DNA from: Opitutales bacterium
Lineage (GTDB): Bacteria; Verrucomicrobiota; Verrucomicrobiia; Opitutales; PNEW01
Reading direction: 5' to 3'
Assembly (NCBI GenBank): GCA_965197745.1
Contig: CBDANS010000007.1
Span: forward strand, 1,664,001 to 1,728,000
DNA: 64,000 bases
Position 1 is the first letter of the stretch; each line of letters starts with the position of its first letter. A model generated the notes under the pieces. It worked only from the letters and a program-made list of their open reading frames with translations. It did not search any database and was not told where the DNA came from. Shown here piece after piece: positions 3,236 through 26,119 of the stretch. A program made the translations under genes and the position numbers.

Positions 3236-4553
3236 TGGTCGTGACCACGAAAACTGGTCCACTTGAAAAGTTAGTCTGGTCCAACTAGAAAGGACACAGA
3301 CAATGAAAGGCAAAAGATACACGACCGAAGAGAAAATACGGATGCTGCGCCAGGCGGACAAAGGGAAAACGATCCTGGAAGCATGCCGCGAGAACAACAT
3401 AAGCGAACAGACCTTCCACCGCTGGAAACGTGAGTTTGGGATGATTGATGTCAACCAGGCCAAGCGGATGAAGGAGCTCTTTGAAGGAGAACGCGCGGTT
3501 AAAACGGATGCTGGCGGACAAGATGCTGGGGATAGAGATCCTGCAGGAGACCCTCGAAAAAAAACTGTAAGCCCTGGGCACAAGCGGCAAGTGGCAGAGA
3601 GACTTGTGACTCGGGGCCAGTGTTCGATGCGAGCGGGGTGCCGGTACTTTCGGCTGCACCGTTCCACCTATGCGTATAGGGCCAAGCATCCGGATGCCTG
3701 GCTAACGAAACTAAAAGCGGCAGTAAGGCGGTTATCACGGCAATACGCGAGGTGGGGCTATCCCAAGATCACGAAGCTGTTGAAGGACGAAGGCTGGCAG
3801 GTGGGTAAACGTCTCGTGCAACGTCTGCGACGTGAACTGGGTCTGGCGATCCCCCCACGCAAGCCAAGACGCCGGCGCAGGGATGTCTGCACCGGGCTAC
3901 CGACAAAGGCCGAACATCCCGACCATGTTTGGACCTGGGATTTTATCCACGATAAGACGGTTCGCGGCGGCAGTCTAAAAATGCTGACCGTGCTCGATGA
4001 GTACACCCGCGAGTGCCGGGTGATCCATGTTGATCGCCATATCAATGCGGAAACGGTGCGCGGTATCATGCAAAAACTGCTCGACCGGCATGGGCCGCCA
4101 AAATATATTCGTAGCGACAACGGTTCCGTTCCGAGGAGCGAAGCGACGACATGCAAAGCCATTCATTGAAAGCCAATTGAGAGCCTGGCTAACTGCGATG
4201 AAAATCAAAACCCTCTATATCGAACCAGCAAGCCCTTGGCAGAACGGATACATTGAATCGTTCCATGCCCGTTTTCGCGAGGAGTGTTTAAACCGTGAAC
4301 AGTTATGGACTTTGACCGAAGCCCGCGTGGTCATCGAAGATTGGCGCTGGCTTTACAATCATGTCCGACCCCACCGCAGCCTCGGCAACATCACTCCACG
4401 GCACTTCACTGAAAACCTCAATACCGAAGGCTCGGGCTCCATTCGGGCTACGCCCTCATTGCGCCCAAGCCTTGACTTCCTCTACCAACTTAACTTCAAC
4501 ATTAACCTCTCCAGACTAACTCTCCCGGTGGACCAGTTTGTGTAACCCGACCA
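3236..4553 (+). mobile_element. IS3-family element, lineage A (inactivated)
   Basis: Ends TGGTCGTGACCAC.. / ..GTAACCCGACCA; OrfA HTH, A8 slippery site, WTWDF, SDNG, NGYIESF; extra T in orfA; 32-nt insert in the SEF codon; no TSD. Confidence 0.95.
4129..4160 (+). repeat. Micro-element, site-2 (DNGS-E-F) type
   Basis: TCC G[ttccgaggagcgaagcgacgacatgcaaagcc]A TTC. Confidence 0.9.
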
Positions 4554-5917
4554 GCCTGCTGACCCCAATCGGTATAGCGACAGACAAAACATCGGCCCCT
4601 TTCTTCGCGGAACGGATTCGTGCTTGTTCTGTGAAGGCATTCCTTGCGTTCGAAAACCGGCGGGGATGGCTTTTCCCTGATATTCATCATGAAGAACAGC
4701 CGTCCATAATTGTGTTCACACTGTCCCAGCATCAATTTACTGACTTCGAATTCTGTGTCCGTATCTCGTCATGGGAACAGTTCAACGACTCCAATCGACG
4801 CTTCCGGGTATCCGCGAACCTCTTGAGTGAGGTTAATCGGAATACTGTAACCGTACCGTTGTTCCGTACCATGCGCGACGCTGAACTGACCACAGCGATT
4901 TACAGCCGCCTGCCGGTGTTGGTCGATCGATCATCGGGCGAGGAAGTTAAGGCATGGCCGGTGAAATACTCGACAATGTTCCATATGACCAACGACTCCG
5001 GCCTGTTCCGCACGCGCGAGGAGCTTGAGGAAAAGGAAGGTGCATATCACGTCGGTAGTAACCGCTTTGCCAGTCCGTCCGGAGACTGGGTGCCGCTCTA
5101 TGAAGGCAAGATGATACAGATTTACAATCACCGCTACGCGAGTGTTCGTGTCAATCCCAAAAACATCAGTGGGCAAGGGGTGTCCGAAAAAACGGGGGCT
5201 GCGACACTTCAAGACCCCACATTCGTACCTGATCCGAGGTATTGGGTCAACACGATGCATATTTCAGAAGACGATCGTGAAAGATGGCGAATCGGTTTCA
5301 ATGACGTCTGTAATACGAACAACGCGCGAAGTGTTATTGCGTGCGTTGTTCCACATGCTGGATTCGGTAATACGCTACCGATCCTTTCTCTTGAGGAGAA
5401 GGCACCTGATTTAGATCTTGTTCTGTTGGTTGCGAACCTCTGTGCACTTGTTTTCGATTATGTCGCCAGACAAAAAATCCAATCACGGCACCTGAACAAG
5501 TACATCCTGGAGCAACTCCCGGTCGTCCAGTCCACCCGCTACAAAGCTGTCCACTTTGGAAAGAAGACCACCGCCGAAATTGTCCAAGAGGCCGTTCTTG
5601 AATTGACCTACACCTCTGATGATATGGTCCAATTCGCTCACGATATGGGCTATGTCGATGAGGCGGGTGCAGTAAAACAGCCATTTTCCTGGAATAAAGA
5701 TCGCCGTCTTCACCTACGCGCCAAGCTAGACGCCGTGTTCTTCCATCTTTACGGTGTCACAGACCGCGATGACATCCGCTATATCTATTCAACCTTCCCG
5801 ATCGTTGAACGCAAAGAGAAGGCAACTTATCGTGGCGTGTACCGTTCCTGCGAACTTTGCCTTGCCTATATGAACGCTCTTGCCCATGGAAAACCGGACG
5901 CGGAGGTAAAGCTTTGA
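4554..5917 (+). pseudogene. C-terminal part of an Eco57I-like/type IIG R-M (DISARM DrmMI-like) methyltransferase, 5' end lost at the IS
   Basis: P.GIATD, PLYEGKMI..YNHR, FDYVARQK, RA.LDA..FHLYG...DDIRYI.STFPIV motifs. Confidence 0.7.
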
Positions 5918-5948
5918 CGTAGGACAGGAATATCCGGCTCTGCACTCT

Positions 5949-7083
5949 CTAATCGGAACTGATGTGTAGTTGGCGTGAGCTCCGAGGATAGGACCGTTGT
6001 CCGTGAGAGTCTTTCCGTAAATAAGAACGGAAAGACAAATGAAACAGAAGAGATGCACCACCGAGGAGATGCTCAACAATCGTGTATGGAGGAAGAGAAT
6101 AGAAATACCGAGTCGCATAACGACGACATCTTCCAATAGTAAGCTCGTGGCATAAGAAAGAAGCGGTAAAGCAAGTGGTAGCACAAGGGGGTTTCTCGCT
6201 GGATCGAGCGTGCTGGTATCTTCGAGCTGCATCGCTGAACTCATCTCTATGAGCACAGGCAGGAATCTTGTTATACTTAGCCCATGGTGAGCGGGTCATA
6301 AGACTTTCAAAGGCACATTTGCATTACGGTTATCGTCGTATTCATGCGCTGTTGAATAAAGAAAAGTGGAAGGCAAGGCGCAAAATCATGCAAAAAGGGT
6401 AAGAGCGTTGAAGGACTTGAGTGTTAAACCCTTTCGTCGCCTTCAGAGACGCCGAGGGCACTTTACTGGGCTTTCTACTAAAGCAGTAAGGCTGAACCAT
6501 GTATGGAGTTGAGATTTAGTTGCGAGCGCAATACATCCGCTCCGATTACGTTTACAAATCGGTATATGATATTACGGACAGTGTCAGATTCAAGAGCAGC
6601 TTGTACGTATGTTTCTTCCCTAGCAGAGTTTCGATTTGATCCAGCAGTGTCAATTAGATCAAGTCGCAGCACGTATCAAACGGTTTGTAGCACAAACAGT
6701 GAGAGAAGTACTCCTCAACAAGCGATAGCGAGAATAACAAATGTCCATGGTGCGTCTTTTTATCTTCCACTGCGTAACGTACCAAGGAGCGCAGTGACGA
6801 CATAGCAAAACACTCATGCTTAAATCAAGAATGGTTCCTAAGCGTTACCGAAGGGCGTGTTGTTATTGAAGCGTGGAAGCAAAACTAAAATGCCCAATAT
6901 CCTCATAGTCGTTTAGGCTTCCTCTCTGCCAATGCTTTTGCCAAACTCTGGCACCAACTCGATCCTACAAGTGCTGGCTCCACGAGCCCTACGGCCTATC
7001 TTCGCCAGCATCTCTTAAACCAATTATAGATAACCCATCGAATGGCTCTCACTCAACTTGGGTGTAATTATGAAGTCCAATCA
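5949..7083 (+). mobile_element. Degenerate IS3 element (lineage C-like) with internal foreign DNA
   Basis: MKQKRCTTEE orfA start, YGYRRI, CLNQEWF..V.E.RVVIE; right end ..aagtccaatca; left end approximate. Confidence 0.7.
6780..6815 (+). repeat. Micro-element, site-4 type (diverged); tail of a site-3 element at ~6708-6738
   Basis: G[taccaaggagcgcagtgacgacatagcaaaacactc]A TGC TTA AAT. Confidence 0.85.
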
Positions 7084-7280
7084 TTGGTACAAAGGATATG
7101 CGGAAAGCTTCAATAATCATTTAAGAACTGAGTGCCTTGAGCACAAGTTACTATACACCCTGACTGAATCCCACGTGGTAATCGAACAATGGCGTCATAC
7201 CTACAATCATGAACATTCCCACCGTCGTTTAGGCTTTAAAAGCCCACTAACGTTTGTCAGTTTCTTTTCCGATCCTGAAA
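7084..7280 (+). mobile_element. IS3 transposase 3' fragment
   Basis: GYAESFNNHLRTECLE...VIEQWRHTYN..H.H.RLGFKSP. Confidence 0.8.
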
Positions 7281-7287
7281 TTAGGTA

Positions 7288-8142
7288 ATGAAAGATGAAT
7301 CAAGAATACTTACTATTGATGTCGCAGACTCAATCTGTGATGCGTCGATTGCATTATCGAACCAGACAACAGATGTTAAAACAGATTCTTGGCATCATAT
7401 TAAAGGTTCGGTTATATATGAAAAAATAGTAATCAGTTATCTGCGTGTTCTGCGATTTATACCCAATAGTAAATACTATAGTCCAATTGGTAAATTCAAA
7501 GTCTGGGACTTTTCATCAACAGCATCGATTACAAGAAGTATTATTGAAGCATACTTCTGTTTGTTTTACATATGCATTGAAAATGTAAGTAATAAAGAAA
7601 AAGAGAAGAGAAAGCTTCTTTGGCTATACCATGAGAAAAATGAGAGACACAAAATGCTTAAGATAGCTTTGCCCAATTCGAAATATGTTGGTAAATTATA
7701 TGATAAAAAAGAACGTCTTAGAAAAAAATTAGTAACCCACACTTGGTTCCTGAAACTTAAACCAGGACGACAAGAAGAACTATTAAAAAAAGATGTAAGC
7801 AAATTGGATGGAAATATAGAGATATGCAAAAAAGCAGGAATCAATCAAAATTATTACCAACCAACCTTTAAGTTTCTATCAAATTTTGCACACACTTCAC
7901 CATTTTCAATTTATCATATAGACTCAAAGTACATTACTGAAAAGAAAGCGAAGTTATTATTCGGCCACATTGCTAACATTGCATCTGGCTTCTCTGTGAT
8001 TGCTCTAGAAGATTACGCTAAGCTCTTTCCAGAGCAATCCCTTGATAACTCAGAGATTAATGAATATATTAATATTTGGAGAGAAATAATGCAGTGGGAG
8101 AAGTCTGAATATTTTGATAAATCTGAGGTTGACTCTAATTGA
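7288..8142 (+). CDS. DUF5677-like hypothetical protein (AT-rich)
   Basis: RSIIEAYF.LFY and LSNFAH.SP motifs. Confidence 0.55.
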   Translation: MKDESRILTIDVADSICDASIALSNQTTDVKTDSWHHIKGSVIYEKIVISYLRVLRFIPNSKYYSPIGKFKVWDFSSTASITRSIIEAYFCLFYICIENVSNKEKEKRKLLWLYHEKNERHKMLKIALPNSKYVGKLYDKKERLRKKLVTHTWFLKLKPGRQEELLKKDVSKLDGNIEICKKAGINQNYYQPTFKFLSNFAHTSPFSIYHIDSKYITEKKAKLLFGHIANIASGFSVIALEDYAKLFPEQSLDNSEINEYINIWREIMQWEKSEYFDKSEVDSN

Positions 8143-8352
8143 TGAGCATGCTTGTCAATGCCTGGCCATAAAGGTATCGTGTTCGCTAAAAGCGAAGACG
8201 TGGTACAAGTCCTAGTCGAAGCTATTGAAGAGTATGGCAGAGCCCAATGCATCCGCTCCGATAATGGTTCGCAGTTCGTAGCACAAAAAGTCACAGAAGC
8301 ATTCCTCAAGAGCCAGATCGACATTATCTCCATCACCCTTGGTAGTCCTCGG
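8139..8352 (+). mobile_element. IS3 (lineage C) internal transposase fragment
   Basis: CIRSDNGSQFVAQKV...IDII.I..GSP; matches 13070-13210. Confidence 0.8.
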
Positions 8353-8368
8353 TGGTTATGCCACTTAA

Positions 8369-9217: not shown

Positions 9218-9543
9218 ATGTATTTGATGTTATACTCCTAATGCGGACTCGCATGTATTAGGTGTGAGATTGATCGGACTGGTTGGACCCCGTATTTCGT
9301 ACCAATTTTTAAGTGAGAGAACTACCGGGTGTTAATGGTATTAGGATTGATGTATATGAGAGATCTTGGCGCAGTGAGGGCGTAGCCCGAACGCGGCCAG
9401 GATCTGAAAGGAATCAGACAAACTCTTGTGGGCTTTGAAAGCCTAATCGACTGTGAGGATGTTCATTGTTATAGGTCTGACGCCATTGTTCGATTAGAAC
9501 TTGCGCTTCAGCCACGCTGAGCAACACTTCAGGGTTCAAACAT

Positions 9544-9579
9544 GAGCGCTTCGCTATGTCGTCACTACGTTCCTCGGTA
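9544..9579 (-). repeat. Micro-element, site-4 (RD-E-CLN), 36 nt
   Basis: GAT G[taccgaggaacgtagtgacgacatagcgaagcgctc]A TGT. Confidence 0.9.
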
Positions 9580-9620
9580 CATCGCGTAAGCGGTTGTGAA
9601 ACGACTCGATGAAACCGTTT

Positions 9621-9663
9621 GTTATTCTCGCTTTGGCTCGTTGAGGTGTCGCTTCGCTCGGTA
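9621..9663 (-). repeat. Micro-element, site-3 (PW-Q-NG), 43 nt
   Basis: TGG C[taccgagcgaagcgacacctcaacgagccaaagcgagaataac]A AAC. Confidence 0.9.
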
Positions 9664-9743
9664 GCCAGGGACTGCCTGGTTGGATATAGAGGGTTTTGAT
9701 TTTCATCGCTGTTAGCCAGGCTCTCAATTCCTTTTCAATGAAT

Positions 9744-9775
9744 GGCTTCGCATGTCGTCGCTTCGCTCCTCGGAA
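9744..9775 (-). repeat. Micro-element, site-2 (DNGS-E-F), 32 nt
   Basis: AGT G[ttccgaggagcgaagcgacgacatgcgaagcc]A TTC. Confidence 0.9.
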
Positions 9776-9903
9776 CACTGCCATTATCACTGTGGATATA
9801 GCTGGGAGCTCCCTCCTTTTCAATGGCCTCGCTAAGCACAGAGAGGACATCGGTTGAGGTGAGCTGTCGAGCTACCCGGATGCGTAAACATTTACGCGTA
9901 TAT

Positions 9904-9946
9904 GTCTTCGCTTCGCTTGAGTGTCGTCGCTTTCAGCTCCTCGGTA
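9904..9946 (-). repeat. Micro-element, site-1 (ID-E-YTR), 43 nt
   Basis: GAT G[taccgaggagctgaaagcgacgacactcaagcgaagcgaagac]A TAT. Confidence 0.9.
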
Positions 9947-11296
9947 CATCGATCAAGGTCATCATCTTTAGCATACCGCCATTGTCTGTACGATCATGGA
10001 CAAAGTCCCAGGACCAGACGTGATTGCGACCGGTTGCTTTAGTAGGGAGCCCAGTAGAGATCCCCTGACGGTGTCTACGCTTTTTCGGGGGCTTTACCTG
10101 TAAGCCCGAAGAACGTCGCACTGCCTGTACAAATTTCCTGCTTGCCGCCCAACCTTCCTTCACCAGCAGGGCACGAATGCGCCGGTAACCGTAACGGGGA
10201 TGTTCCCAGGACAAGGTCAAAATCCGCTCGGCCAATTGCTGAGCCTTCTTACTGGCCTGCTTGGGTCGGTAGCTGTACGTTGACCAACTGAGGCTGAGAT
10301 AAGCACAAGCCCTCCGAAACGAGCACAGCCCCTTCTCAGCCGCATCTTTTACTGCTCGCTTCTTCTGCTTTGGGCTCACCATTTTTTTGAGAGCGTTTCC
10401 TCCAACACCCGAAGCTTGAGCATTTGATCAGCGAGCATCTTCTTCAGCTCCGTGTTCTCCTTTTCCAGTTCTTTAAATCGCTTCGCATCAGCCAGCTCCA
10501 AGTTGCCATACTTTTTGCGCCAGCGATAGAAGGTCTGTTCACTTAGGTTGTTGCCGTGGCAGACTTCCTGCACGGTTTTGCCCGTATCGGGCTGCCGGAG
10601 TATTGCTATGATCTGTTCTGTTGTATATCTTTTTCTTTTCATTGAGGTTATCTGTTTATCCCGATAACCTCTCTCTGTTAATGATACCATTTTTTGGGGT
10701 CACTCCACAACCATTTCCCACCTTATTGACGTAGCCCATATGCGGGGCAAAGGGGGCCACGTCATGAGACGTGTAGGTCAACTCAAGAACGGACACTAGG
10801 ACAATCTCCCGAGCTCACTTCGAGCCGAAGCGGACAGCCGCGCAGAGTTTCGGCGACAAAACGTGGAGTTGCTCGACGATGAACCAGTTGAGGTGTTGGC
10901 CTTCTTAAGTCTTCCCACAAGGGATCACTGTGGAGGGAGCACCAGCACCCCTTTTGTGCGGCGCGCCGCCGCGCCGGGCGAGGAGGGGACACGCGAGCCG
11001 CAGCCTCGCTTCGATTTGTCGCAGCGGACGCGGGCAACTCCTTTTGTCCTGCGTCTTATGTGGCGTTTCGGCGAAGTCCCACACCACAACGGCGGGGGCT
11101 CTGCCCTCTGAGGGAAAAGCGTTGTGGTTGTCGAAATCATGTCCACCCCTCCCCGTCTGAAAGGGGACACCCATCTGACGGCATATGCGTGACCCCCGAA
11201 GACGGAAATCGTCGATCATTCCTGCCCCGGACAAGGCAGCCATGGCGTTCAACAGCGGTCCGGTGACTTCCGTTTTCCTACCCGCTGGGGGCACGT

Positions 11297-11821: not shown

Positions 11822-11983
11822 TTGGTCTCTCCAGCAAATTTCGGCCGGTGGGTGCTATACCGCAAGCACTGCGACCGCCAATTGCGTTCCGCAATCGCCT
11901 CACCGGCGCGGAAGTGTCGGTCGATTACCATCTCTGCACACCCATATTACACAGTTGTTCGCGCGGCAGCTCTCTGTATAGGC

Positions 11984-12703: not shown

Positions 12704-12726
12704 GCTTGCTCTTCTCCAATCGAGTA

Positions 12727-14087
12727 TGATTAGACCCCATAATTACTACCAAGTTAAGTGAGAGCCATTCCGTGGGTTATCTGTTGTTGGTTTAGCAGAT
12801 GCTGGCGGAGGGAGGCCGGAGGCCGAGTGGAGCCAGCACCTGTTGGATTGAGTTGCTGCCAGAGTTTGGCAAAAGCGTTGGAGAGAGAAAGCCTAAACGA
12901 CTATGAGGGTGATGGGTATTGTATTTTTGCTTCCCCGCATGGATGACAACACGCGCTTCGGTAACGCTTAGAAACCACTCTTGGTTTAAGCATGAGTGCT
13001 TCGCTATGTCGTCACTACGTTCCTCGGTACGTCACGCAGTCGATTGTGAAAGGATTCAACATGGCCGTTCTGCCAAGGACTGCCAGGGTCGATGTAGATA
13101 ATGTCGATCTGGCGCTTGAGGAGTGCTTCTCTGACTTTTTGTGCTACGAACTCCGAACCGTTATCGGAGCGGATGCATTGGGGTCTGCCATACTCTTCAA
13201 TAGCTTCGACTAAGACCTTGCACCACGTCTTCGCTTTTGAGCGAACGAGATACCTTTATGGCCAGGCATTGACGGGTATACTGATCGACACGGTGAGAAT
13301 GCGGAAAGGGCGGCCGTTGACCAGCCGATCGCTCATAAAGTCCATCGACCAGCGTTCCTGGGCAGCTGAAGCCGCGGGCAGTGAGACCCGCCTTTGCGCG
13401 GCACGCTTCTTACGTTTCTTCGTGCGCACTTCCAGCCCTTCGGCCTTGTAGATCCGATAGACGCGTTTCTTTCCTACCGACCAGCCCTCCCGCTTTAATA
13501 ACACCGTGATTCGCCTATACCCGTAGCGCACACGCGCGGCGGCGAGGTCTCGTATGCGCACAATCAGCGCGCGTTCGTCCCTCATCACCGGCTGATAGTT
13601 ATAACTCGACCAATACAACTGCATCAGCCTGTACGCCCGGCGTTTGCTAACTTCATAAGCTTCCACTAACCACTCAGCAATCACCTTCTTGCCCACTGGC
13701 TTTACAACTTTTTTGAGATAACTTCCTGCACCATGTGCTTGTCCAGGCTCAGATCAGCGACCAGCTTCTTCAAACTGGCGTTCTCTTCGTCGAGTTGCTT
13801 CAGCCGTCTTAATTCACTGATTCCCATGCCCGTGTATTTACCCTTCCAACGGTGGTAGGTCTGTTCGCTCACCCCTAACTCCCGGCACCCTTCGGCGATC
13901 CTTCGACCACCTTCTACCTGCCTTAGGGCATAGATGATTTGTTCTTTATTATAGCGTTTGTCAGGCCTTCTCGGCTGCGCCTCGTTTTCCTTTGCTTTTC
14001 ATGGATCGTTCTTTCTCCTATTTTTATTAGCTTTTCTACCCACGCCAGACTAAATCTTTCCTGGTCCAGTTTTACGGGGACAGGTCA
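12727..14087 (-). mobile_element. Chimeric IS3: lineage D 5' part fused to lineage C 3' part
   Basis: Ends TGACCTGTCCCC.. (14087) and ..GGGGTCTAATCA (12727); WSMDF, SDNGSEF, PWQNGHVESF; frameshifts. Confidence 0.85.
12994..13029 (-). repeat. Micro-element, site-4 type, in IS3 lineage C
   Basis: GAC G[taccgaggaacgtagtgacgacatagcgaagcactc]A TGC. Confidence 0.9.
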
Positions 14088-14089
14088 AT

Positions 14090-16663: not shown

Positions 16664-16762
16664 CTTTTCCCCCTATTGTTCCCACTCTCCATCGATATCT
16701 CAACGCCCTAAAAAGGCGCCAGAGGAACGCACGGTTCAAAGATGGTACCTTTTGCAGGGTGT

Positions 16763-18255
16763 GATATGCTCCCATTTACTAGACCAAGCTCAGTGTTAGG
16801 ATTTGCTGGTTGGAGGGGGGCGGTTATCAGTTTGCATATGGCTTGCTGGGCGTATTCGGCCGGAGGTCGCCGGAGGCCGATAGCCCAGCGAGCTGCGTAG
16901 TCTTTGAGTATTATAATCGAGGCGGTATGGTGTAAGCTTTTCCCGTGCCTCAGTCAGGGAAAAGAAGATCTCTGGGTTAAGGAGTTCGTCGCGTAGCTTG
17001 CCATTGAAGAACTCAATGTAAGCGTTCTCTGGTCGGTCTACCTGAGAACTCGGGCCCGCTATCGACGGTGATGGCCTTGGGTAAACCACCGGTGTTTACC
17101 GATGCTCTCTCCAGCACCTCGATGACTTTGCCGGCGTCGATGGACTGATCGGCGTAGAGCACCGGGCAGAGCGGTCATAGCGATCCACTACTGTAAGCAC
17201 CCGGAAACACCGCCCATCCGCCAACTTACCCTCCATGAAGTCCATGCTCCTGTGTTGGCGTGAGGCTCGGGCTTGAGCCAACTGCACCTGTGGCAGGGAA
17301 GCCCACTTCTTACGTTTTTGGATGCGCACTTCCAGCCCCCTCGGCCTTGTAGGTGACGTAGACACGCTTTGTGGCCCACCCGGCCAGCATCTCGCTTTAG
17401 CAAACACTGTCGGACGCCGATAACCGTAACGCATGCGCAATGCTGCCAGATCGCCGATACGCACGGACAGAGCTCGATCGTCCGGTTTTGGCTTGGGCCA
17501 ACACATAAAGCTTGACCCGTTAAGTTGCAGCAGCCTGAACCCGCAACGGTAGCTGATCTCGAAGACCTCAGCGGCCTTACCCACCAGCTGCACCTTGCGT
17601 ACAGGCTTCAGAGCTATATTGAGACGATCTCCTGCAGGATATGTTTGTCCAGGTTCAGGTCGACCACCAGCTTACGTAAGCTGTTGTTCTCGTCTTCCGG
17701 CTTCTTCAACCGGGGTAGCTCGCTTACGCCTATGCCGCATACTGCTTCTTCCAGCGGTAGTAGGTCTGCTCCGAGACTCCTGGCTCGCGACACACATCGG
17801 CGATCCTGCGACCGCTGTCTGCTTGCCGCAAAGCGTAGATGATTTGTTCTTCTTTATAGTCTTTATAGCGTTTACCTTTGCTTTTCATAATGGACCGGGT
17901 TCCATTCTATGAACCCCGATCCAACCCAATGGGATCAACCTGCATACCCGGCGTTTGCTTACCTCATAAGCTTCCATTATCCACTTAGCTATCGACTTTT
18001 TGCGCAAAGGATTAATTTGCTGATTCCTAAACCTGTATATTTACACTTCCAACGGGGGTAAAGGCCTTGTTCGCACAACTCGGACCTTCGGTATCCCTTC
18101 GTCCGCCTTCTGCCTGCTTTATGAAATAGATCATTTGCTCTTTATGATAACGCATGCCTTTTCTACTGATGGGTGGTTTTTATCCTGTCTTTTATCAGGT
18201 TTTCCTCCCATGAAAGACTAAATCTTTGCTCGTCCAGTTTAATGGGGTCAGGTCA
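16763..18255 (-). mobile_element. Degenerate IS3 (lineage D-like) remnants, nested
   Basis: NAYIEFFNGKLRDELLN, YGYRR, SMDF fragments; end TGACCTGACCCC at 18255. Confidence 0.8.
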
Positions 18256-18290
18256 CAGTCCCTCTATTTTATTAAGCTTACTTAACTGAT

Positions 18291-18790
18291 TCATCCCCGA
18301 GGGACTATTCGCCAGAAACGATCTGCTTCCTCAGTAGTTACCAGGTCGAGATAGTAATTACGGATCACGGATTCAGAGTTGCTTGCCTGAGGTGCAGCGT
18401 CTCCTACCGAGCGGAAGGACCCCACCGTCATCGAAATATAGGTATGCCGTAGGGCATTAGGTGGAGTTTGCGCTATTTACGGACATTAGCCTACATGTCG
18501 CGGAATCTCCTTGTTGGTATGGTGAGGTAGCTGCCAGGAGGATACTTCTCCAACCAGAGGCTACGGGTGGGCTGGATTTTAACGGATCGCTTATCCTTTA
18601 CTTTGGAGACATCCGGTTCGATAAGGATAACCCCGCTATCCCTATGGATGTGTTTAGGTTTGAGTTTGCTCATTTTACCGTGTTTCCAGTCAAGTCTGTA
18701 AACAAAGTTTTTCTTAATCTACTTCATAGGGAAATCTGGAGGTGCCATTACAGGTTCTGGTGCGATTAAACTTGTCTCCACCGGGCGCAT
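18291..18790 (-). pseudogene. Tyrosine recombinase/integrase remnant
   Basis: GVILIEPDVSKVKDKRSV.IQP, then NALRHTYISM...SVGDAA.QASNSESVIRNYY...EEADRFWRIVP; frameshifted and deleted. Confidence 0.75.
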
Positions 18791-18833
18791 AAATTTATTG
18801 TTTTGCCTCACAAGGGTCTGTTAATCGAGATTA

Positions 18834-19032
18834 TTAAATTCACTCAAAAATTATTGACCGATTCCTGGCTGAACCTTACCAAAAAAGTATTCCTGCCCAT
18901 TCCTGCCAAACATTTTGAGGCAAGGTCAGGAAATTAGAGGAAAATATAAATTATTATTGTGCCGTTATTTAAGTATAACTAATTGTTAATAAGCAGTTTA
19001 TAAGGCATTATTGAGTCCCGTTCATAGTCGGT
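18834..19032. repeat. ~195 bp att-arm-like repeat, copy 1
   Basis: Near-identical to 25400-25588 and 28834-29034; internal attcctgcc direct repeats. Confidence 0.9.
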
Positions 19033-19366
19033 TTCATCGAGTCGTTTCACAACCGCTTACGCGATGTACCGAGGAACGTAGTGACGACATAGCGAAGCGC
19101 TCATGTTTGAACCCTGAAGTGTTGCTCAGCGTGGCTGAAGCGCAAGTTCTAATCGAACAATGGCGTCAGACCTATAACAATGAACATCCCCACCGTCGAT
19201 CAGGCTTTCAAAGCCCACAAGAGTTTGTCACATTCCTTTCAGATCTTGGCCGCGTTCGGGCTACGCCCTCACTTCGCCAAGATCTCTCATATACATCAAT
19301 CCTAAAACCATTAACACCCGGTAGCTCTCTCACTTAATAATTGGTACGAAAAACGGGGTCCAATCA
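19029..19366 (+). mobile_element. IS3 lineage B 3' half
   Basis: Begins at GFIESF; ends ..ggggtccaatca. Confidence 0.9.
19067..19102 (+). repeat. Micro-element, site-4
   Basis: Identical to 9544-9579 (reverse complement). Confidence 0.9.
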
Positions 19367-19559
19367 GTTTTTTAGAATATAAATTTAAAAAAGCGGTAAG
19401 GATCAGCTGAAGCTCAGCCACTGCTGAGCTATTGCGATTAAGCACCGTGTTTCACCTAACTTATATCCTATGTATACTCTGCGCTCTCTGCGTCTCCGCG
19501 GGAAAACATTTGCTGAACTGAATGTTGTATATTTAGATGTAACCCTATTAATCTAAGGC

Positions 19560-21158
19560 ATGATGGATCAACCGTTTCGACTGATATGGGAGGCTGAATG
19601 GAACGACATCGCGTGCGTGGATTACCCGCTAACGCCGGAGCAATGGCTGGGCGAATGCATACGCCCGCTAGAGGGGACGCAGGTAGACTGCCTGCTCTAC
19701 AACCTGTGCTCGTCGGACGCATACTGCTGTGACCTGGAGAGCGGCGAGATCCTGGGCGATGAGTTCGAGCAATTCCCGGATGCATGGGTTTGGCGCTATC
19801 GAGAGAATACCAAGAAGCTGATCGAGGCGAACGCGAACCCGCCAAAGCTTGCGTGTGAGTACGGGCGCCGCATGGGATTGAAGCTGATACCGGTCGTTCG
19901 CATGAATGATCCACACGACCAGGCTTACAAGTACGAGGTCAGCCGGTTCAAAATGGCCAACCTGCATCTGCTCTTGGGTTACACCGGACCGGATTGGCAG
20001 CCGCCTTGGGGGACTTGGTGGCGAGCGCACCCCAATCCCGAGAGTATGGACGCCACCAATTGGGGACTGTTTGATTTTGCGCACAAAGAGGTCCGCGACC
20101 ACAAAATGGCCATCATCGAGGAGTTCATCACCCGATGGGACAACGACGGCATCGCGCTTGATTTCGAACGCGATCCTCGCTACTTCAAAGAGTTCGGCAA
20201 GGCGGAAAACGCCGTGCTTATCACGGACATAGTGCGGCAAACGCGCGAGCTTCTGGACCGCGTGAGCTGCGAACGTAGTCGACCCATGTACCTGCATGTG
20301 CGTGTCGTGGCGGATATCGACACGTGCTGGCAACGAGGACTGGACGTGCACACGTGGGTGAAAGAGGGATTGGTCGACGTCGTTGTGCCTGGCGCCGGAT
20401 ACATGTTATTCGATATGGACCTTGGTCCGTGGTTGGAACTGGTCGAAGGGCATGACTGCTGGATATTCCCCTGCGTGAACCACTGGAGAAAGACGGAAGT
20501 GACCCGCGCCTGGGCCAAGTTGATGTATCAACGGGGAGCGCATGGGCTGCAACTGTTCAACTTCGGGCACTTGCTCTACGGACACGGTATAGATACGCCA
20601 CCGCAATCCGAACGGACAGGGACGGTCTGGTACGACGATCTGCACCCGGAGTATTACCGTGTGCTGCACGAGATCCACGATCCGGGCGTGATTGCCTTTC
20701 TCAACTGCGATTACGATCTCGATTCACATCCGCGCGCACCAAACCAGGGAGCTCATTCGGGACAGAACCACAGGACCTACCGGGGTATCGACGCGATCGT
20801 GCTCCCTGTGGAGCTGTCGGTTGGGTCACACGTCATCCCGTTCGGGATTGCCGATGATCTGGAAGCGGCGCGGCAACGGGCGCTGTCGCCGAGAGTCACC
20901 TTGCACTTGCAGGTACACAACTTCACGCGGCCCGATGAGTATAAGGTCTCAGTTAACGGAAGCTTATTGCCGGGAGATGCTCGGAGCACTCGGGCGCAGT
21001 TTATCATGGACAATTTTACCCGAATGACTTATCTCCTGCCGCCCGATGTCTTGAGGCTCGGTCAGAATGAATTGAAGATCGAAGTGGAACGCCTCAACCC
21101 GGCAATTTGCGTGACTCCGCGGCTGGATCACGTCGAGATTCTCGTGCAATATGCCTGA
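19560..21158 (+). CDS. Glycoside hydrolase-like (GHL10/family-10-like TIM barrel) protein
   Basis: RMND.H, FDFAH.EVRD, DGIALDFER, W.KEGLVD motifs; GC higher than neighbours. Confidence 0.65.
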   Translation: MMDQPFRLIWEAEWNDIACVDYPLTPEQWLGECIRPLEGTQVDCLLYNLCSSDAYCCDLESGEILGDEFEQFPDAWVWRYRENTKKLIEANANPPKLACEYGRRMGLKLIPVVRMNDPHDQAYKYEVSRFKMANLHLLLGYTGPDWQPPWGTWWRAHPNPESMDATNWGLFDFAHKEVRDHKMAIIEEFITRWDNDGIALDFERDPRYFKEFGKAENAVLITDIVRQTRELLDRVSCERSRPMYLHVRVVADIDTCWQRGLDVHTWVKEGLVDVVVPGAGYMLFDMDLGPWLELVEGHDCWIFPCVNHWRKTEVTRAWAKLMYQRGAHGLQLFNFGHLLYGHGIDTPPQSERTGTVWYDDLHPEYYRVLHEIHDPGVIAFLNCDYDLDSHPRAPNQGAHSGQNHRTYRGIDAIVLPVELSVGSHVIPFGIADDLEAARQRALSPRVTLHLQVHNFTRPDEYKVSVNGSLLPGDARSTRAQFIMDNFTRMTYLLPPDVLRLGQNELKIEVERLNPAICVTPRLDHVEILVQYA

Positions 21159-21262
21159 GCGCACCCGTTTAGTGTGCTACATGCACAATTCAGAACAGAT
21201 CAGAATATTACTTCCGCGCTCTGGGTGTCAATCAGGCCGTCTCAATTGCGGATTGATTCCAT

Positions 21263-21419
21263 TTGTCATCGCGAAGGAAGCGTAGCTGACTGTGGCTACC
21301 GAGCGTGAAACGCGACATCTTCTATTCCAGGGGGCTGTCAATACGTGACCGACATCCTCCTGGAGTGGAAGATGTCGCTGAGCTCGGTAGCTTCGTCGCA
21401 TTGCTCCTCGCAATGACAA
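21263..21419. repeat. GTCAT(T/C)GCGAG-type REP-like palindrome with a micro-element in each arm (21297-21316 +, 21374-21389 -)
   Basis: ttgtcatcgcga... ...cctcgcaatgacaa long imperfect inverted repeat. Confidence 0.8.
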
Positions 21420-21465
21420 GAGGATAATTACGAAGATAAGGATTATATTCGATAACCGTTAGACA

Positions 21466-21550
21466 CAATCCGTAATCCGTACCGAGAGCTAAGCGCGACA
21501 TCCCTCATTCCGCATTCCGTACCGAGGGCGAAGACCGACATCCATAATCG
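21466..21550 (+). repeat. Heptamer tandem repeat (aatccgt/attccgc) with two 20-nt micro-elements (21480-21499, 21520-21539)
   Basis: aatccg[taccgagagctaagcgcgac]atcc; attccg[taccgagggcgaagaccgac]atcc. Confidence 0.8.
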
Positions 21551-21552
21551 TC

Positions 21553-22259
21553 TCACTCGATCGTTACCTCATCGACAGCAATGGTGATCTCATCACCCTC
21601 TTCATTAACGAAGGTTGCATTGATATTTTGAGTCGGTTGAGGAGTGTTGTCAGATTTAAAATTGTTCTGCGTAATCAAGGTATCAAATTCTCGCGTCGTC
21701 GATCCGCTCTCCGCGACTACGATCGAAGCTCCATTTGTCTGTGCCAGGTCTCCTCCAGTGATCCGCAACCCGGGGTTGCTGGCCGGCACCGTGAAGGAAC
21801 CTTCTCCAAACAGCAAATGTGGTACTGCATCGTCACTGGCATCGATGTCACCTACGGTTAAGCGTACTGCTATCGGTACTCCGCGTGCATCGACGCCTAC
21901 TTTGCCGGTGTCTCCACTGAAGACAGTATTCGACAACTGAATCCCTCCCATCCCCGTGGAGTTGATCACTTCCACCAAGGTGACGTCGGCTTGCGCGTCA
22001 TAAACCTGTCCCTCGGGGAAGAGCGCCTGGTTCACCGCGTTGATCGATCCCACCGTAAAGATACTGAAGAAGGTACTGGAGTCAGCTCCATCGATGACTA
22101 CGCTCGGCTTACCGGTCACGTACTCGACGGCCTGGTTGTAGCGTAGGGGTGGAGCCGGAGGCAGGAAGGTGGCCGGGTCCAAGATTACAGTAAAGGTCCC
22201 TGCGCCCGAGAACTCTACCTGCACAATGTCCTCATTTTCGTCCATGAAGGAGACCCGTG
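21553..22259 (-). pseudogene. Orphaned conserved C-terminal domain, 5' end cut by IS3-B2
   Basis: TRVSFMDENEDIVQVEFSGAG...FSIFTVGSINAVNQALFP, paralogous to the C-termini of 29635 and 34376. Confidence 0.85.
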
Positions 22260-23687
22260 TGATCGGACCCCGTTATTCGTACCAATTATTAAGTGAGAGA
22301 GTTACCGGGTGTTAATGGTTTTAGGATTGATGTATATGAGAGATCCTGGCGCAGTGAGGGCGTAGCCCGAACGCGGCCAGGATCGGAAAGGAATCTGACA
22401 AACTCTTGTGGGCTTTTAAAGCCTAAACGACTGTGGGGATGTTCATTGTTATAGGTCTGACGCCATTGTTCGATTAGAACTTGCGCTTCAGCCACGCTGA
22501 GCAACACATCAGGGTTCAAACATGAGCGCTTCGCTATGTCGTCACTACGTTCCTCGGTACATCGCGTAAGCGGTTGTGAAACGACTCGATGAAACCGTTT
22601 GTTATTCTCGCTTTGGCTCGTTGAGGTGTCGCTTCGCTCGGTAGCCAGGGACTACCCGGATCGATATATATCGCCTTGATGTTTTTTTCACGCAACCACC
22701 GCTGTACTTGATGAGCGATAAATGGCTTCGCATGTCGTCGCTTTGCTCCTCGGAACACTGCCATTATCACTGCGGATATAGCTGGGAGCTCCCTCCTTTT
22801 CAATGGCCTCGCTAAGCACAGAGAGGACATCCGATGAGGTGAGTTGACGAGCTACCCGGATATCCAGACATTCACGCGTATATGGCTTCGCTTCGCTTGA
22901 GTGTCGTCGCTTTCAGCTCCTCGGTACATCGATCAGAGTCATCATCTTTAATGGACCGCCATTGTCTGTGCGATCATGGACAAAGTCCCAGGACCAAAGG
23001 TGATTGCGACCGGTTGCTTTAGGAGGCGACCCTGTAGAGACTCCTTGACGGTGTCTGCGCTTTTTTGGTGGCTTTACCTGTAAGCCCGAAGAACGTCGCA
23101 CTGCCTGTACAAATTTCCTGCTCGCCGCCCAGCCTTCCTTCACCAGCAAGGCACGGATGCGCCGGTAACCGTAGCGGGGATGTTCCCAGGACAGGGTTAC
23201 AATCCGCTCGGCCAACCGCTGAGCTTTCTTACTGGTCTGCCTGGGCCGGTAGCTGTACGTTGACCAACTGAGGCTGAGATAAGCACAAGCCCTCTAAAAC
23301 GAGCACAGCCCTCTCTCAGCCGCATCTTTTACTGCTCGCTTCTTCTGCTTGGGGCTCACCATTTTTTTGAGAGCGTTTCCTCCAACACCCGAAGCTTGAG
23401 CATTTGATCAGCGAGCATCTTCTTCAGCTCCGTATTCTCCTTTTCCAGCTCTTTAAATCGCTTCGCATCAGCCAGCTCCAAGGTGCCATACTTTTTGCCC
23501 CAGCGATAGAAGGTCTGTTCACTTAGGTTGTTGCCGCGGCAGACTTCCTGCACGGTTTTGCCCGTATCGGGCTGCCGGAGTATTGCTATGATCTGTTCTG
23601 TTGTATATCCTTTTCTTTTCATTGAGGTTATCGGGTTATCCCCATAACCTCTCTCTGTTAATGATACCATTTTTGGGGGTCACTCCA
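22260..23687 (-). mobile_element. IS3 lineage B copy 2 (1428 bp); micro-inserts at 22524-22559, 22601-22643, 22724-22755, 22884-22926
   Basis: Colinear with 9280-10707 at offset 12980; extra TAG in orfB; no TSD. Confidence 0.95.
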
Positions 23688-23689
23688 TT

Positions 23690-24229
23690 TTGCCTCGGGA
23701 GTTCATCGAAACGTTTATCGAGGCCTCCTCAAAGTATGCGGAAGTCACCGACGAATTAAACAACTTCATCGATCGGCTCAACCAGGTAAAATCAGCTGAG
23801 ACCGATAACCTGACTGAGGTCGAGATTGATTCCATGTTTTATTTTGACCCGAAATTTGTGGACGAGGTGGACGAGGCAGGACTCGAACTGAAAAAGCTAT
23901 ATCTAAAAGAATTTGCAGTAGATATGCACTACCAATCGACCAATGTTTTCTGGATTGGAGAAGGGACTGAAAAAGAACTTTATCCTGAAGGAGATGATAC
24001 AAAACCTGTCTTTGGGGGAAACGCGATCTATTACAGAAGTAAGGACAATTTACCTTCATGGATTCCAGACGATAAAGTAAATCTTGAGTTGCCTCCCCCA
24101 TCGAATTTTAATCCCCGTTTGCATACCGACCCGGATACAGAACCCTTTATCTGGGTTCCTGCTGGAACATGGGGATTCTTTTGTATTGATCGACAATGGA
24201 AGATAGCGATCATCCGTTCTGGAACATAA
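23690..24229 (+). pseudogene. Hypothetical protein fragment, 5' end cut by IS
   Basis: Acidic ORF starting directly at the IS end. Confidence 0.45.
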
Positions 24230-24673
24230 TTCGATCGACTGGGATGAAACAGTTTAGCCGAGTAAACGAGCGAAGACAGCCATTGGCAAAGGAAGAGAAG
24301 TCAAAGGATGATGGGATTAATCATGCCTAATCCTCGTGCTTCAGTATTGAGTCGGCATTCCCCAACCTTACAAAGTACATCCGTCATTTTGAATGGTTGA
24401 CACTGTCGCAATTTCCAGTCACCTCGACACTTGAATAGTGATCGGACCCCATTATTCGCACCAGTTTAAGTAAGGGAGCAAGGGAAATCAAAGATGGCCT
24501 AAGCACATTGTCGACCTGTTACCGGATTCGTTCGAGGAGTCGGAGTAATGACTGAGCTGAACTAAGTGAAGCACCAACCCATAACCCTCAAAGTCATTAC
24601 GATTTACGAACTGCCTTTCGACTGCGCCAGCCAGAGACAACGAATAACTCCATGGTGATGTACCCACGAGCCG

Positions 24674-25138
24674 TTACCGGGCGGGGGCATCCACAGCCAA
24701 ATCGGTGGTGATGAGGGCGAAAATGCCCTCTATATCGCGCGCCGGGACAGAGCGGGTGATCATCCAAATCTCACCGCCACCCGCATCAAAGTAAGGGGCT
24801 GTCCAGACGCCCGTATTCGCTGCCAATGGCGCTGTAACCCAGACCTGAGTCTCAATGTTGTAGGTGGGTGTGGCGAGGTCGTGGGTGGCGTAGCCGTCGG
24901 CGGTGCGATAGACATAGGGGCAAGTGGTGACCACACCAGCATGATCGAGCAGCGCAGCGGCACTGCCGTGGAACGCGGGGTTGGCCTCCAAGTAGGCCCG
25001 TAAGCGCTCCGTATACGCGGCTGGATTGGCTGGTCGTTCCACCTCCAACTCTGCCACCAAGGTGTCGAGGGCGGCAACCACCGCAGTCTTCAAGCCCTCC
25101 TGAGTGGGCGCGCTAGGACTACAGCCTTGGGCAGTCAA
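24674..25138 (-). CDS. Cache (PDC-like) domain protein, probably 5'-truncated
   Basis: PYVYR...W.APYFDAGGGEIWMITRSVP...ITTDL. Confidence 0.65.
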   Translation of the reverse strand: MTAQGCSPSAPTQEGLKTAVVAALDTLVAELEVERPANPAAYTERLRAYLEANPAFHGSAAALLDHAGVVTTCPYVYRTADGYATHDLATPTYNIETQVWVTAPLAANTGVWTAPYFDAGGGEIWMITRSVPARDIEGIFALITTDLAVDAPAR

Positions 25139-25386
25139 GAAGGTAAGCAGCAGCAGAGACAGGGCCGCTGCTCGAACATGAGGTGATGGGTTTGGAACCT
25201 AGGGGCGATGTATTGCCATGGAGCGTAAACGAGACGGGTTGGTTTAGGGACTGATATACACAACTGTACTTGTTGCCTTGTTGCAACTTGATCTAACAGA
25301 CACTGTTTTATCAAATCGCAACTCTTCCAGAGAATAACATTGATTGTTTTCTTCTCAACTTCCAATCAAATAATAAGTTATCGTCG

Positions 25387-26119
25387 TGGAGTGCCCCAAA
25401 AATCCACTCGAAAATTCTTGGCCGATTCCTGGTCGAATATCATCAAAAAATATGATTCCTGCCAAACATTTAGAGGCAAGGTCAGGAAGTTAGAGGAAAA
25501 TATAAATTATTATTGAATCGTTATTTACGTGTAACTAATTGTTATTAAGCAGCTTAAAAATCATTATTGAGTCCCGTTCATAGTCGGTACATCGAGTCGT
25601 TCCACAACCTCTCACCCGATGTACCTAGGAACGTAGTGACGACATAGCGAAGCGCTCATGTTTGAACCGTGAAGTGTGCTCAGTGTGGCTGAAGTGTACA
25701 AAACGGTATTTGATATTAGGGACAGTGTCAGATTCAAGAGCCGCTTGTACGAATATTTTCTTCTCAACTTCTGACGATAACTTTTTGGTTGATCGGAAGT
25801 TGAGAAGAAAACAATCAATGTTATTCTCTGGAAGAGTTGCGATTTGATCAAGCAGTGTCTGATAGATCTAGTCGTAACAAGTACAGCCTGAAGCTCAAGG
25901 GGTAATCGAACCATGCCGTCATACCTACAACCATGAACATTCCCACAGTCGTTTAGTCTTTAAAAGCTCGCAAGAGTTTGTCAGTTTCCTCTCCGACCTT
26001 GGCCACGTTCGGGCTGCGCCCTCACTTCGCCAGGATCTCTCATATACATCACTCCTTAAACCATTAACACCCCGTAACTCTCTCTCTTAATAATTGATTC
26101 GAATAACGGGGTCCAATCA
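25387..26119 (+). mobile_element. Non-autonomous IS3-B derivative: IRL stub, att-like repeat, IS 3' half with a ~190 bp insert
   Basis: tggagtgccccaaaaat at 25387; ggggtccaatca at 26119; site-4 micro-element at 25622-25657. Confidence 0.75.
25400..25588. repeat. att-arm-like repeat, copy 2
   Basis: Aligns with 18834-19032. Confidence 0.9.

Follow-up and report, generated by a model that had tools for sequence, protein, structure and literature searches.

How DNA units with no room for a gene, and shorter than the ends that ordinary transposases use, come to be copied into exact places has been a question since the cyanobacterial repeats were described. It is raised again by a 64,000-nucleotide (nt) stretch from an Opitutales bacterium of the phylum Verrucomicrobiota, referred to here as the window (C7:1664001-1728000; C7 is contig CBDANS010000007.1 of assembly GCA_965197745.1, here G000, which is 4.45 Mb in length, in 7 contigs and 92% complete). 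The window contains repeated copies of a hairpin unit, T(A/T)CCGAG-hairpin-GACA with a tail, whose ends are fixed and whose small hairpin is variable; this unit, hereafter the module, is 24-44 nt in length when copies borne by insertion sequences (IS) are included. Our preferred explanation, which we consider probable, is that it is a very small, structure-dependent, non-autonomous mobile DNA module that has been repeatedly inserted and then carried by host IS and miniature inverted-repeat transposable elements (MITEs).

Scanning both strands of the window for T[AT]CCGAG, together with a relaxed scan, identified 18 copies, all between 4129 and 25658. An earlier, sequence-only reading had listed 17 of these: each carries the motif, the copy at 6106 is additional, and for ten of them (9544, 9621, 9744, 9904, 12994, 21374, 22524, 22601, 22724 and 22884) the position first given is the low end of a copy on the minus strand. 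Two copies with one mismatch were rightly singled out (TACCAAG at 6780 and TACCTAG at 25622), as was the lack of copies in the core genes after 33 kb: beyond 25658 no convincing copy was found in the window, the look-alike at 27220 (minus strand) having neither hairpin nor tail. The hosts and the copies are as follows, where isA and isB are two IS3 lineages, A to D are insertion sites within them, and ^ marks a joint.

3303..4545, + strand: isB (second IS3 lineage), its transposase disrupted by insert B
9285..10708, - strand: IS3-family isA copy 1, state ABCD
22265..23687, - strand: isA copy 2, state ABCD
21264..21420, no strand: palindromic MITE GTCATCGCGA...CCTCGCAATGAC, of a family that is a gene-less derivative of a ~460-nt GIY-YIG cassette
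4129..4161, + strand: insert B, TTCCGAG-GAGCGAAGCGAC-GACA-TGCAAAGCC-A, in the SDNGS^EF codon of isB; four genomic isB copies are empty here (TTCCG^AG^TTTATT)
6106..6135, + strand: canonical copy, TACCGAG-TCGCATAACGAC-GACATCTTCCA (motif scan)
6780..6816, + strand: decayed D-type insert (TACCAAG, one mismatch) in an IS fragment (relaxed scan)
9543..9579, - strand: insert D of isA copy 1, RDE^C codon; most IS copies have the empty allele gatg^AG^tgtttg
9621..9663, - strand: insert C of isA copy 1, PWQ^NG codon; empty allele tggc^AA^aacgg
9743..9775, - strand: insert B of isA copy 1, SDNGS^EF codon; empty in 2/32 aligned IS copies (gtg^AG^ttcatt)
9903..9946, - strand: insert A of isA copy 1, IDE^Y codon, adding a net 42 nt that include an in-frame TGA; empty in 5/32 IS copies (gatg^AA^tatacg)
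12993..13029, - strand: D-type insert in an IS fragment (motif and relaxed scans)
19067..19103, + strand: D-type insert in an IS fragment (motif and relaxed scans)
21297..21324, + strand: canonical copy with hairpin CGTGAAACGC, left arm of the MITE at 21264-21420
21366..21389, - strand: canonical copy with hairpin CTCAGC, right arm of the same MITE
21480..21507, + strand: copy within a TTCCGNA-type heptamer run
21520..21547, + strand: second copy within the heptamer run
22523..22559, - strand: insert D of isA copy 2
22601..22643, - strand: insert C of isA copy 2
22723..22755, - strand: insert B of isA copy 2
22883..22926, - strand: insert A of isA copy 2
25622..25658, + strand: D-type insert (TACCTAG, one mismatch) in an IS fragment (relaxed scan)

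Since IS copies and fragments carry site A twice, B three times, C twice and D six times, 13 of the 18 copies owe their number to multiplication of the host IS, and the set corresponds to approximately 10 independent insertion loci. The heptamer run lies at 21440-21550.

The full canonical unit reads T(A/T)CCGAG-hairpin-GACA-TCTTCCA, i.e. T(A/T)CCGAG-hairpin-GACATCTTCCA, and is 24-35 nt in length. GACA, originally taken to be the right end, is indeed fixed, but the conserved end is longer, with TCTTCCA beyond it: across 82 distinct contexts the consensus 3' of GACA is T (84%), C (82%), T (65%), T (69%), C (62%), C (80%) and A (81%). Upstream, the flank in these contexts is variable except for S (G or C) at position -1 (C 53%, G 34%), in line with the sequence-only reading, which had each copy follow G or C. 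At the four IS3 sites of isA a longer second small hairpin ending in CA takes the place of TCTTCCA, the second hairpin tail of the same reading. Alignment of filled and empty alleles, which it had proposed, fixes the junction: after S, the target bases A-R (A-A or A-G) are replaced, with no duplication and a net loss of one base. The junctions are exact at five IS sites (four in isA, one in isB), where, as had been claimed, one target base is lost and none is duplicated. Two other interpretations of the ends were rejected: IS3-type TG...CA ends or a Tc1-type TA duplication, as there is no duplication and no terminal inverted repeat, and a large 'master' element with the same ends, as the 35 right ends that lack the left word are decayed copies.

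The hairpins fall into three classes: a G-C pair plus one further pair round a triloop (GC-GCA/GAA/GTA-GC), four pairs round a triloop (GGGC-GAA-GCCC and variants), and five to seven pairs round 4-8 nt. Stems of at least 3 base pairs (bp) occur at 53 sites, versus 0 in the genome read backwards. Because compensated variants are present in both the 4-bp class (n = 21; pairs 2-4 vary as GC/AT/CG, GC/AT/TA and CG/TA) and the 6-bp class (n = 5; inner pairs vary as TA/CG and CG/TA), pairing is kept though both sides of the stem change, a property that had been seen correctly in the window. IS-borne forms read GAG-GAGCGAAGC-GAC-GAC; such GAG-GAG...GAC-GAC words had been interpreted as nested copies and, judging from the order of the bases, are better read as one rod in which Watson-Crick pairs would alternate with tandem G-A mismatches. 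The CGAG...GAC bracket round the hairpin recurs in the MITE arm as GCGAGG-hairpin-GACG, and a long-class hairpin, TCCCGCAACTGCGGGA, is found both in the module and in the MITE arm, which suggests common recognition and exchangeable hairpins. Searches of Rfam gave no family at gathering thresholds for the whole window, only a chance miRNA match far below threshold for 21000-21800, and no match for three loci of a second carrier genome, G040. K-turn, hammerhead-like and bulge-helix-bulge structures were considered and rejected from the sequences, in which the flanks pair inconsistently and the core words differ.

The filled and empty states are best seen in isA, an IS3-family element whose 1.42-kb repeats form 37 full-span chains across G000. 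Among 32 aligned copies there are four insert sites:

Site A, motif IDE^Y: empty allele gatg^AA^tatacg, net +42 nt
Site B, motif SDNGS^EF: empty allele gtg^AG^ttcatt, net +31 nt
Site C, motif PWQ^NG: empty allele tggc^AA^aacgg, net +41 nt
Site D, motif RDE^C: empty allele gatg^AG^tgtttg, net +35 nt

Every isA insert begins with T(A/T)CCGAG, ends in ...CA and replaces two target bases (AA or AG). All four are in sense orientation and follow the first base of a GAA, GAG or CAA codon within an integrase-core motif; the flanks diverge within ~10 nt of insert A. The sites are combined as AB-- (22 copies), ABCD (5), -BC- (3) and --CD (2). The isB transposase is 43-44% identical to that of isA over 144 amino acids (aa); even so, an almost identical insert B occupies its SDNGS^EF codon, as in isA. 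The site is empty in four isB copies (TTCCG^AG^TTTATT) and occupied in all others. Beside site B the two elements share only ~14 nt of identity. The filled isB allele has TTC, as in isA, and the empty allele has TTT, which hints at short conversion tracts. The frame of one empty isB copy is intact, and its 403-aa product has the domains HTH_Tnp_1, HTH_21, rve and rve_3, so a working transposase is available in trans for isB. For isA, no intact transposase was found in the 92%-complete assembly.

A second set of filled and empty alleles is provided by the palindromic repeat GTCATTGCGAGG...CCTCGCAATGAC, in which many canonical copies occupy a single point; the example in the window (21264-21420) has one copy in each arm. 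The empty arm reads ...GACG(C/A)(G/A)GC^AA^TCCAGG and the filled arm reads ...GC, then the module as TACCGAG-hairpin-GACATCTTCCAT, then TCCAGG. The insertion point is 4 nt past the GACG word of the arm or, on the other strand, 4 nt before CGTC. We parsed 118 arms, 78 empty and 40 filled, with both states present in each of four arm subfamilies. Twelve different hairpins occur at the single site of one subfamily, and the commonest variant, CGCAGC, is found in all four (6, 5, 1 and 1 copies), which points to repeated independent insertion of a pool of variants. Together with the four isA sites and the one isB site, the 40 filled arms bear out the proposal that the module is a discrete non-coding unit inserted many times. 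Two odd arms were observed. One (C6, minus strand, index 950794) reads GAAGC^ATTCCAGG, as expected from exact excision of the module. In the other (C7 509523-509600) AATCCAG replaces TACCGAG before a normal hairpin, GACA and tail; this arm may be a recombinant or a repair product.

The same ends enclose a gene. G000 has eight GIY-YIG matches, mostly in small frames, and among these is a cassette of ~460 nt, 5'-GTCATTGCGAGG-arm-[module]-gene-arm-CCTCGCAATGAC, around a GIY-YIG gene of ~97 aa. Two of the cassettes in this genome have identical intact genes (102-aa open frame), one gene has a stop codon (L129) and one is decayed (L134). One cassette and its twin are located at:

C7:1541878-1542349 (L131, 1375-1846): GIY-YIG cassette, gene at C7:1542004-1542282
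C7:1545599-1545904, - strand: twin of this cassette

Genes enclosed by the same MITE ends indicate that the MITE family is the gene-less form of the GIY-YIG cassette. Orthologues with 63-81% identity are found in the same cassette in three related genomes (G001, G002 and G015) and in none of 36 non-carrier relatives. The cassette ends, i.e. the MITE arms, flank the gene in all four genomes, and the module itself is an optional insert of the left arm, where G000 has a copy with a long hairpin and G001 one with CGCAGC; the arm of G002 is empty. Around the gene in G015 (C1:6584-9868; L139) there are more than 20 tandem half-MITE units, GTCATCGCGAGG...GGCGATCCAT, forming a BIME-like array that lacks hairpin modules.

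How many copies are there in the genome, and how did they become so numerous? The bare heptamer T[AT]CCGAG is not over-represented (1077 occurrences in the genome, against 610-1602 for composition-matched heptamers), and the signal lies in the composite patterns. TACCGAG-N4-20-GACATC occurs 91 times versus once for the pattern read backwards; a composite with the 7-nt tail gives 90 canonical copies versus 0; and T[AT]CCGAG-N4-26-GACA gives 303 matches, comprising 149 distinct sequences in 198 distinct flank contexts. Fuzzy matching of the IS-type inserts finds 132 (A 32, B 73, C 11, D 16), and the whole-genome scan proposed at the start thus yields a total of approximately 220 copies (132 IS-type and 90 canonical). 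As 132 of the ~220 ride in IS copies, most copies have been multiplied by the host IS. It could be argued from this that the module has no mobility of its own, and that a few old insertions were multiplied by IS and MITE transposition and by gene conversion between repeats. The isA states AB--, ABCD, -BC- and --CD are incompatible with a single tree, which suggests that IS copies have exchanged sequence, and the TTC of the filled isB allele is as a conversion tract would give. The 12 hairpins at one MITE site and the spread of one variant over four subfamilies argue against this, as do the 198 flank contexts, the divergence of the flanks ~10 nt from insert A, the short identity shared by the two IS lineages at site B, and the bursts of copies in quite different contexts in other genomes (see below); we therefore regard it as unlikely.

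The module is also selective in where it lies. Among 79 distinct copies, only 15 fall entirely within an open frame of 150 aa or longer, compared with 82% of random 24-nt windows. The module avoids intact open frames and acts like selfish DNA, which accords with the claim that it prefers other selfish DNA. The remaining contexts are TTCCGNA-type heptamer runs and a few other intergenic repeats. In all, the module has landed independently many times at the MITE point, and has also landed at four Glu/Gln codons in IS3 transposase motifs, in heptamer runs and in a few intergenic repeats. This pattern would also be produced by an anti-transposon system, host-kept or hyperparasitic, whose homing to IS3 catalytic-motif codons, and to the point where the GIY-YIG cassette is cut, would disable mobile DNA. 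All four IS sites are in integrase-core motifs (IDE^Y, SDNGS^EF, PWQ^NG and RDE^C), site B has been struck in two lineages that are ~44% identical, 32/32 isA copies are broken, and the MITE site is 4 nt from GACG, where SsnA of N. meningitidis is described, in the parts of PMC11893778 drawn on here, as cutting 3 nt from CGTC. The shared target word is, however, only S^AR, and many copies are in heptamer runs and other spacers that have no transposase, which makes such a system an improbable explanation.

The module is not confined to G000. Among 41 relatives, TACCGAG-N4-20-GACATC occurs 91 times in G000, 133 in G001, 147 in G002, 143 in G040 and 44 in G015, with backward controls of 0-1 in the latter four; the others have 0-5 matches (controls 0-4). 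When 401 genomes of the order were scanned, one match or more was found in 231, for the most part no more than chance would give, and ~19 have at least 10 copies (10-147); these carriers are spread patchily over at least 8 families and include G087 (66 copies), G271 (37), G207 (33), G059 (24) and G319 (18). In a collection-wide DNA pattern scan, the true copies in the same contexts among the matches listed are only in Opitutales or Puniceicoccaceae records; the other matches listed are mostly chance occurrences in coding DNA, including one conserved Poribacteria gene. Recent expansions differ from genome to genome: the G015 burst is of a single variant (TTGAAAAC) whose ~60-nt context is conserved, and G040 has bursts of CGAACGC and CGAATGC. 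On the G040 chromosome both module orientations are mixed and no replication-strand bias is apparent, as judged by eye and not tested statistically. The same genome has head-to-tail module arrays with periods of 24-25 nt and ~135 nt (C1 587411-587479 and 2052715-2053147; L152-L156), and inverted module pairs, each preceded by ...ATATCTCAC and followed by ACCCAAT..., that bracket ordinary genes or segments of ~240 nt.

The module is also present in SPAdes-type contigs of metagenome-assembled genomes labelled Opitutales, and a 598-nt contig from DNA run X1, which may derive from the source sample, covers 21132-21729 of the window, with four copies, 1 mismatch and no gap. The same units thus appear in several assemblies made by different methods and in contigs of independent runs, so that assembly or sequencing artefacts are scarcely conceivable as their source.

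These observations are best accommodated by the mobile-module explanation. In outline, the module would be recognised as folded single-stranded DNA by a trans-acting protein, via the CGAG...GAC words that bracket the hairpin; copying or pasting would then take place at a nick that follows S, a little sequence being lost at the joint, and the module would subsequently hitch-hike as the host IS or MITE multiplies. Mobilisation in trans, already proposed from the window, is the sole option for a unit so small; the choice of enzyme that was offered with it is less settled, as discussed below. A bolder form of this model, in which the module is the smallest known site-specific 'homing' DNA, is speculative and, we think, rather doubtful: a 24-44 nt hairpin module would be copied at single-strand nicks and aimed at IS3 Glu/Gln codons and the cut site of the GIY-YIG cassette, with hairpin cargo exchangeable between CGAG and GAC, either as a parasite of parasites or as a host-kept weapon.

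Several results weigh against the mobile-module explanation, and concern its comparisons, its hairpin, its IS hosts and its enzyme. All of the filled and empty comparisons are between paralogous IS and MITE copies and not in unique, non-repeat DNA; synteny with G001, G002, G040 and G087 around 17800-22250 gave repeat-to-repeat matches only and no orthologous empty site. The oligonucleotide d(GCGAAGC) is a specially stable mini-hairpin, and unusual stability had been suggested for the module on this basis, but nearest-neighbour DNA folding of 10 window copies shows nothing unusual (z -1.68 to +1.80). No fold is predicted for the 2-bp stem class, and the copy at 6106, with a 4-bp stem, folds at -3.4 kcal/mol. 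In the IS hosts, the ratio of nonsynonymous to synonymous divergence (dN/dS) between isA subgroups is 0.13-0.47 at dS 0.17-0.55, indicating purifying selection, and between subgroups 1 and 5 the flanks are identical at 1125/1261 positions (89.2%), where insert A is identical at 42/42 and insert B at 31/31 (73/73). A pure 'junk insert' would predict neither, and for both the explanation is incomplete. Any one of recent spread, exchange among IS copies and selection that predates the inserts can be sufficient, and a function of the inserts is a further possible account.

Such a function is supposed if the inserts are intervening sequences that are removed or skipped in expression (by a tiny intron, a protein-assisted RNA cut-and-join or ribosome bypass), so that the IS3 transposases stay functional. 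Not one of the 32 isA copies is insert-free, although 22 copies with only A and B exist; once the insert columns are removed, orfA and orfB are open in the isA consensus, under the purifying selection noted above; and the inserts are more conserved than their flanks and lie at four sites, all sense and all after codon position 1. The RNA libraries point the other way. Part of 20900-23700 is contained in 20 sequencing runs, four of which are RNA libraries with small shares; in runs X17 and X18 the coverage is too small to judge. Contigs of RNA library X16 cross filled sites C and B (record 15, 22571-22828) and filled site A (record 16, 22799-23523) gap-free. Joints that skip D (37 nt, with 'CT' between) and C (43 nt, with 'T' between) are present in DNA run X1 as well, and are thus empty IS alleles. 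The only joint confined to RNA, in X16, skips B (33 nt; 22722 to 22756, with 'CT' between) and equals the empty allele AG that 2/32 copies have in DNA; it is not the product of precise removal. The RNA contigs therefore give no sign of splicing, with a minor spliced form or DNA carry-over in the RNA libraries being possible. In addition, the inserts add a net 42, 31, 41 and 35 nt, with stops, and by our own reading have no matching take-off and landing codons; most copies of the module are in non-coding repeats; the intact isB transposase genes of the second lineage could act in trans; and there is no Rfam match. Intervening sequences are accordingly very improbable.

For the mobile-module explanation, the remaining difficulty is the enzyme that moves the module. 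Of the candidates, we put an Ssn-type GIY-YIG nuclease acting with host repair as possible but on the unlikely side, and a Y1/HUH transposase as a more doubtful proposition still; that something else is responsible has close to an even chance. Close orthologues of the cassette GIY-YIG protein are found in four of the five top carriers and in 0/36 others among the 41 relatives, but its co-occurrence with the module breaks down in G040 (143 copies) and G087 (66), where neither an orthologue nor such MITE arms were found. In G040 the only GIY-YIG open frames are of 303 and 497 aa, neither of them small, and G087 has a 499-aa frame and one weak 108-aa match (E 2.8e-6), with no clear small gene; in G271, G207 and G059 the GIY-YIG matches are of only 34-43% identity. 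GIY-YIG nucleases cut DNA and do not join it. NCBIfam has no family for the small protein, whose nearest solved relative is a UPF0213 protein (1zg2, E 1.7e-5). The SRM pattern, as given in the parts of PMC11893778 drawn on here, occurs 16 times in G000 versus 19 in the backwards control, i.e. at chance, and is absent from the MITE ends and the module. The Ssn link is thus a lead for the lineage of this genome, and not an explanation of the whole module family.

Y1 genes (PF01797) give 1 match in G000, 6 in G001, 4 in G002, 17 in G015 and 46 in G040; 17 of the 36 non-carrier relatives have such genes too, so that they are not carrier-specific. The sole Y1_Tnp gene of G000 (C6:161500-165500) belongs to a ~335-aa type common in the order and is divided between two frames, of 199 and 175 aa; no module copy lies within 2 kb of it. 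In G040, two of three inspected multi-copy Y1 genes have a module copy within ~75 nt, on one side. A 410-aa transposase-like open reading frame (ORF) lies beside the split gene of G000.

Among previously known repeats, the behaviour of the module may be closest to that of the cyanobacterial small dispersed repeats (SDRs), and its architecture to that of the CGTC/TGTC-tagged palindromic repeats and the NTS/SRM repeats. SDR4-6 of Nostoc and its relatives, said to have been described by Elhai and colleagues in 2008, are reportedly mobile insertions of ~20-30 nt, and we know of no enzyme that moves them. SDR5, according to work that cites this description, inserts precisely between nt 3 and 4 of HIP1. 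Like these repeats as reported, the module is very short, has conserved ends, inserts exactly into other repeats and is nested in MITEs and heptamer runs, a likeness of behaviour only; unlike them, it is found in Verrucomicrobiota (Opitutales), has other words, hits transposase frames and replaces two bases at the joint.

The CGTC/TGTC-tagged repeats, according to the sections of Di Nocera et al. 2013 (PMC3733652) used for the comparison, have 8-9 bp stems that start with A-T pairs and a CCA tail opposite the tag. They resemble the module in their hairpin, one-sided GTC word (in the module GAC(A/G) on the strand given here and TGTC/CGTC on the other), short unpaired tail, heterogeneous stems, loops and tails, and lack of a known dedicated transposase; the module differs in its stems of 2-7 bp, the extra T(A/T)CCGAG on the far side, and a CCA-ending tail on the tag side. 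Ssn, in the parts of Chenal et al. 2025 (PMC11893778) considered, is a single-domain GIY-YIG protein of ~100 aa that cleaves single-stranded DNA at a point 3 nt upstream of a hairpin repeat tagged with CGTC, and its genes are flanked by such repeats; the MITE site of the module is one base from the Neisseria cut position (4 vs 3 nt). Shared with NTS/SRM are oriented hairpins with a GTC word before the palindrome and perhaps a small GIY-YIG gene flanked by inverted repeats, which here lies inside the favourite MITE of the module. The differences are that the SRM pattern is unmatched, that two rich carriers lack the gene, and that cutting, not insertion, is what the paper, in those parts, shows.

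REP/REPIN sequences and their RAYT enzymes, as treated in the portions of Bertels & Rainey 2011 (PMC3116915) and PMC3733652 that were used, offer short hairpins thought to be moved single-stranded by an HUH enzyme in trans, and inverted doublets comparable to the MITE arms of the window. The module lacks their GT(A/G)G word at the hairpin foot and instead has the fixed words T(A/T)CCGAG and GACA; the sole G000 Y1 gene is split and unflanked, and module copies lie inside mobile elements and not just downstream of genes. Miniatures derived from IS200/IS605 insert 3' of a fixed tetra- or pentanucleotide with no loss or gain, in contrast to the variable flank and two replaced bases seen here. The module thus fits neither GTAG REPs nor SRMs as these are defined by sequence. 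Our literature searches turned up no description of the Opitutales module family, and searches with the MITE and module words returned unrelated primer sequences only.

The module is among the smallest mobile DNA pieces seen, and the family is clean material for the question of how such units are placed: one genome offers dozens of filled and empty pairs, a defined junction rule, and hairpins that serve as natural barcodes of independent events, and there are complete genomes with recent bursts and two concrete candidate enzymes. It also shows that a single agent accounts for much of the 'decay' seen in the IS3 transposase genes of these bacteria. Should the Ssn link be true, that nuclease family would gain a role in the spread of repeats and not in cutting alone.

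The first part of the window (1-33000) is a patchwork of IS copies and fragments, MITEs, and TonB-receptor and DUF genes, in which the G+C content swings from 40% to 55%; from 33000 to 64000 it is even (41-47%) and there is no module. At 21553-22245 (minus strand) is a 230-aa ORF with no Pfam or NCBIfam family. This ORF has 85 near-full-length paralogues in the genome (~82-88% aa identity), often clustered 2.5-3 kb apart, and more than 80 DNA matches at ~80% identity in both G001 and G002; MITEs and hairpin modules are often within ~150 nt of genes of this family. A 532-aa ORF with no Pfam family is located at 19560-21158 (plus strand), in a segment that matches DNA of G002, which belongs to another genus, with 98% identity across 2.2 kb, suggesting that the segment may be a recent transfer or a mobile unit.

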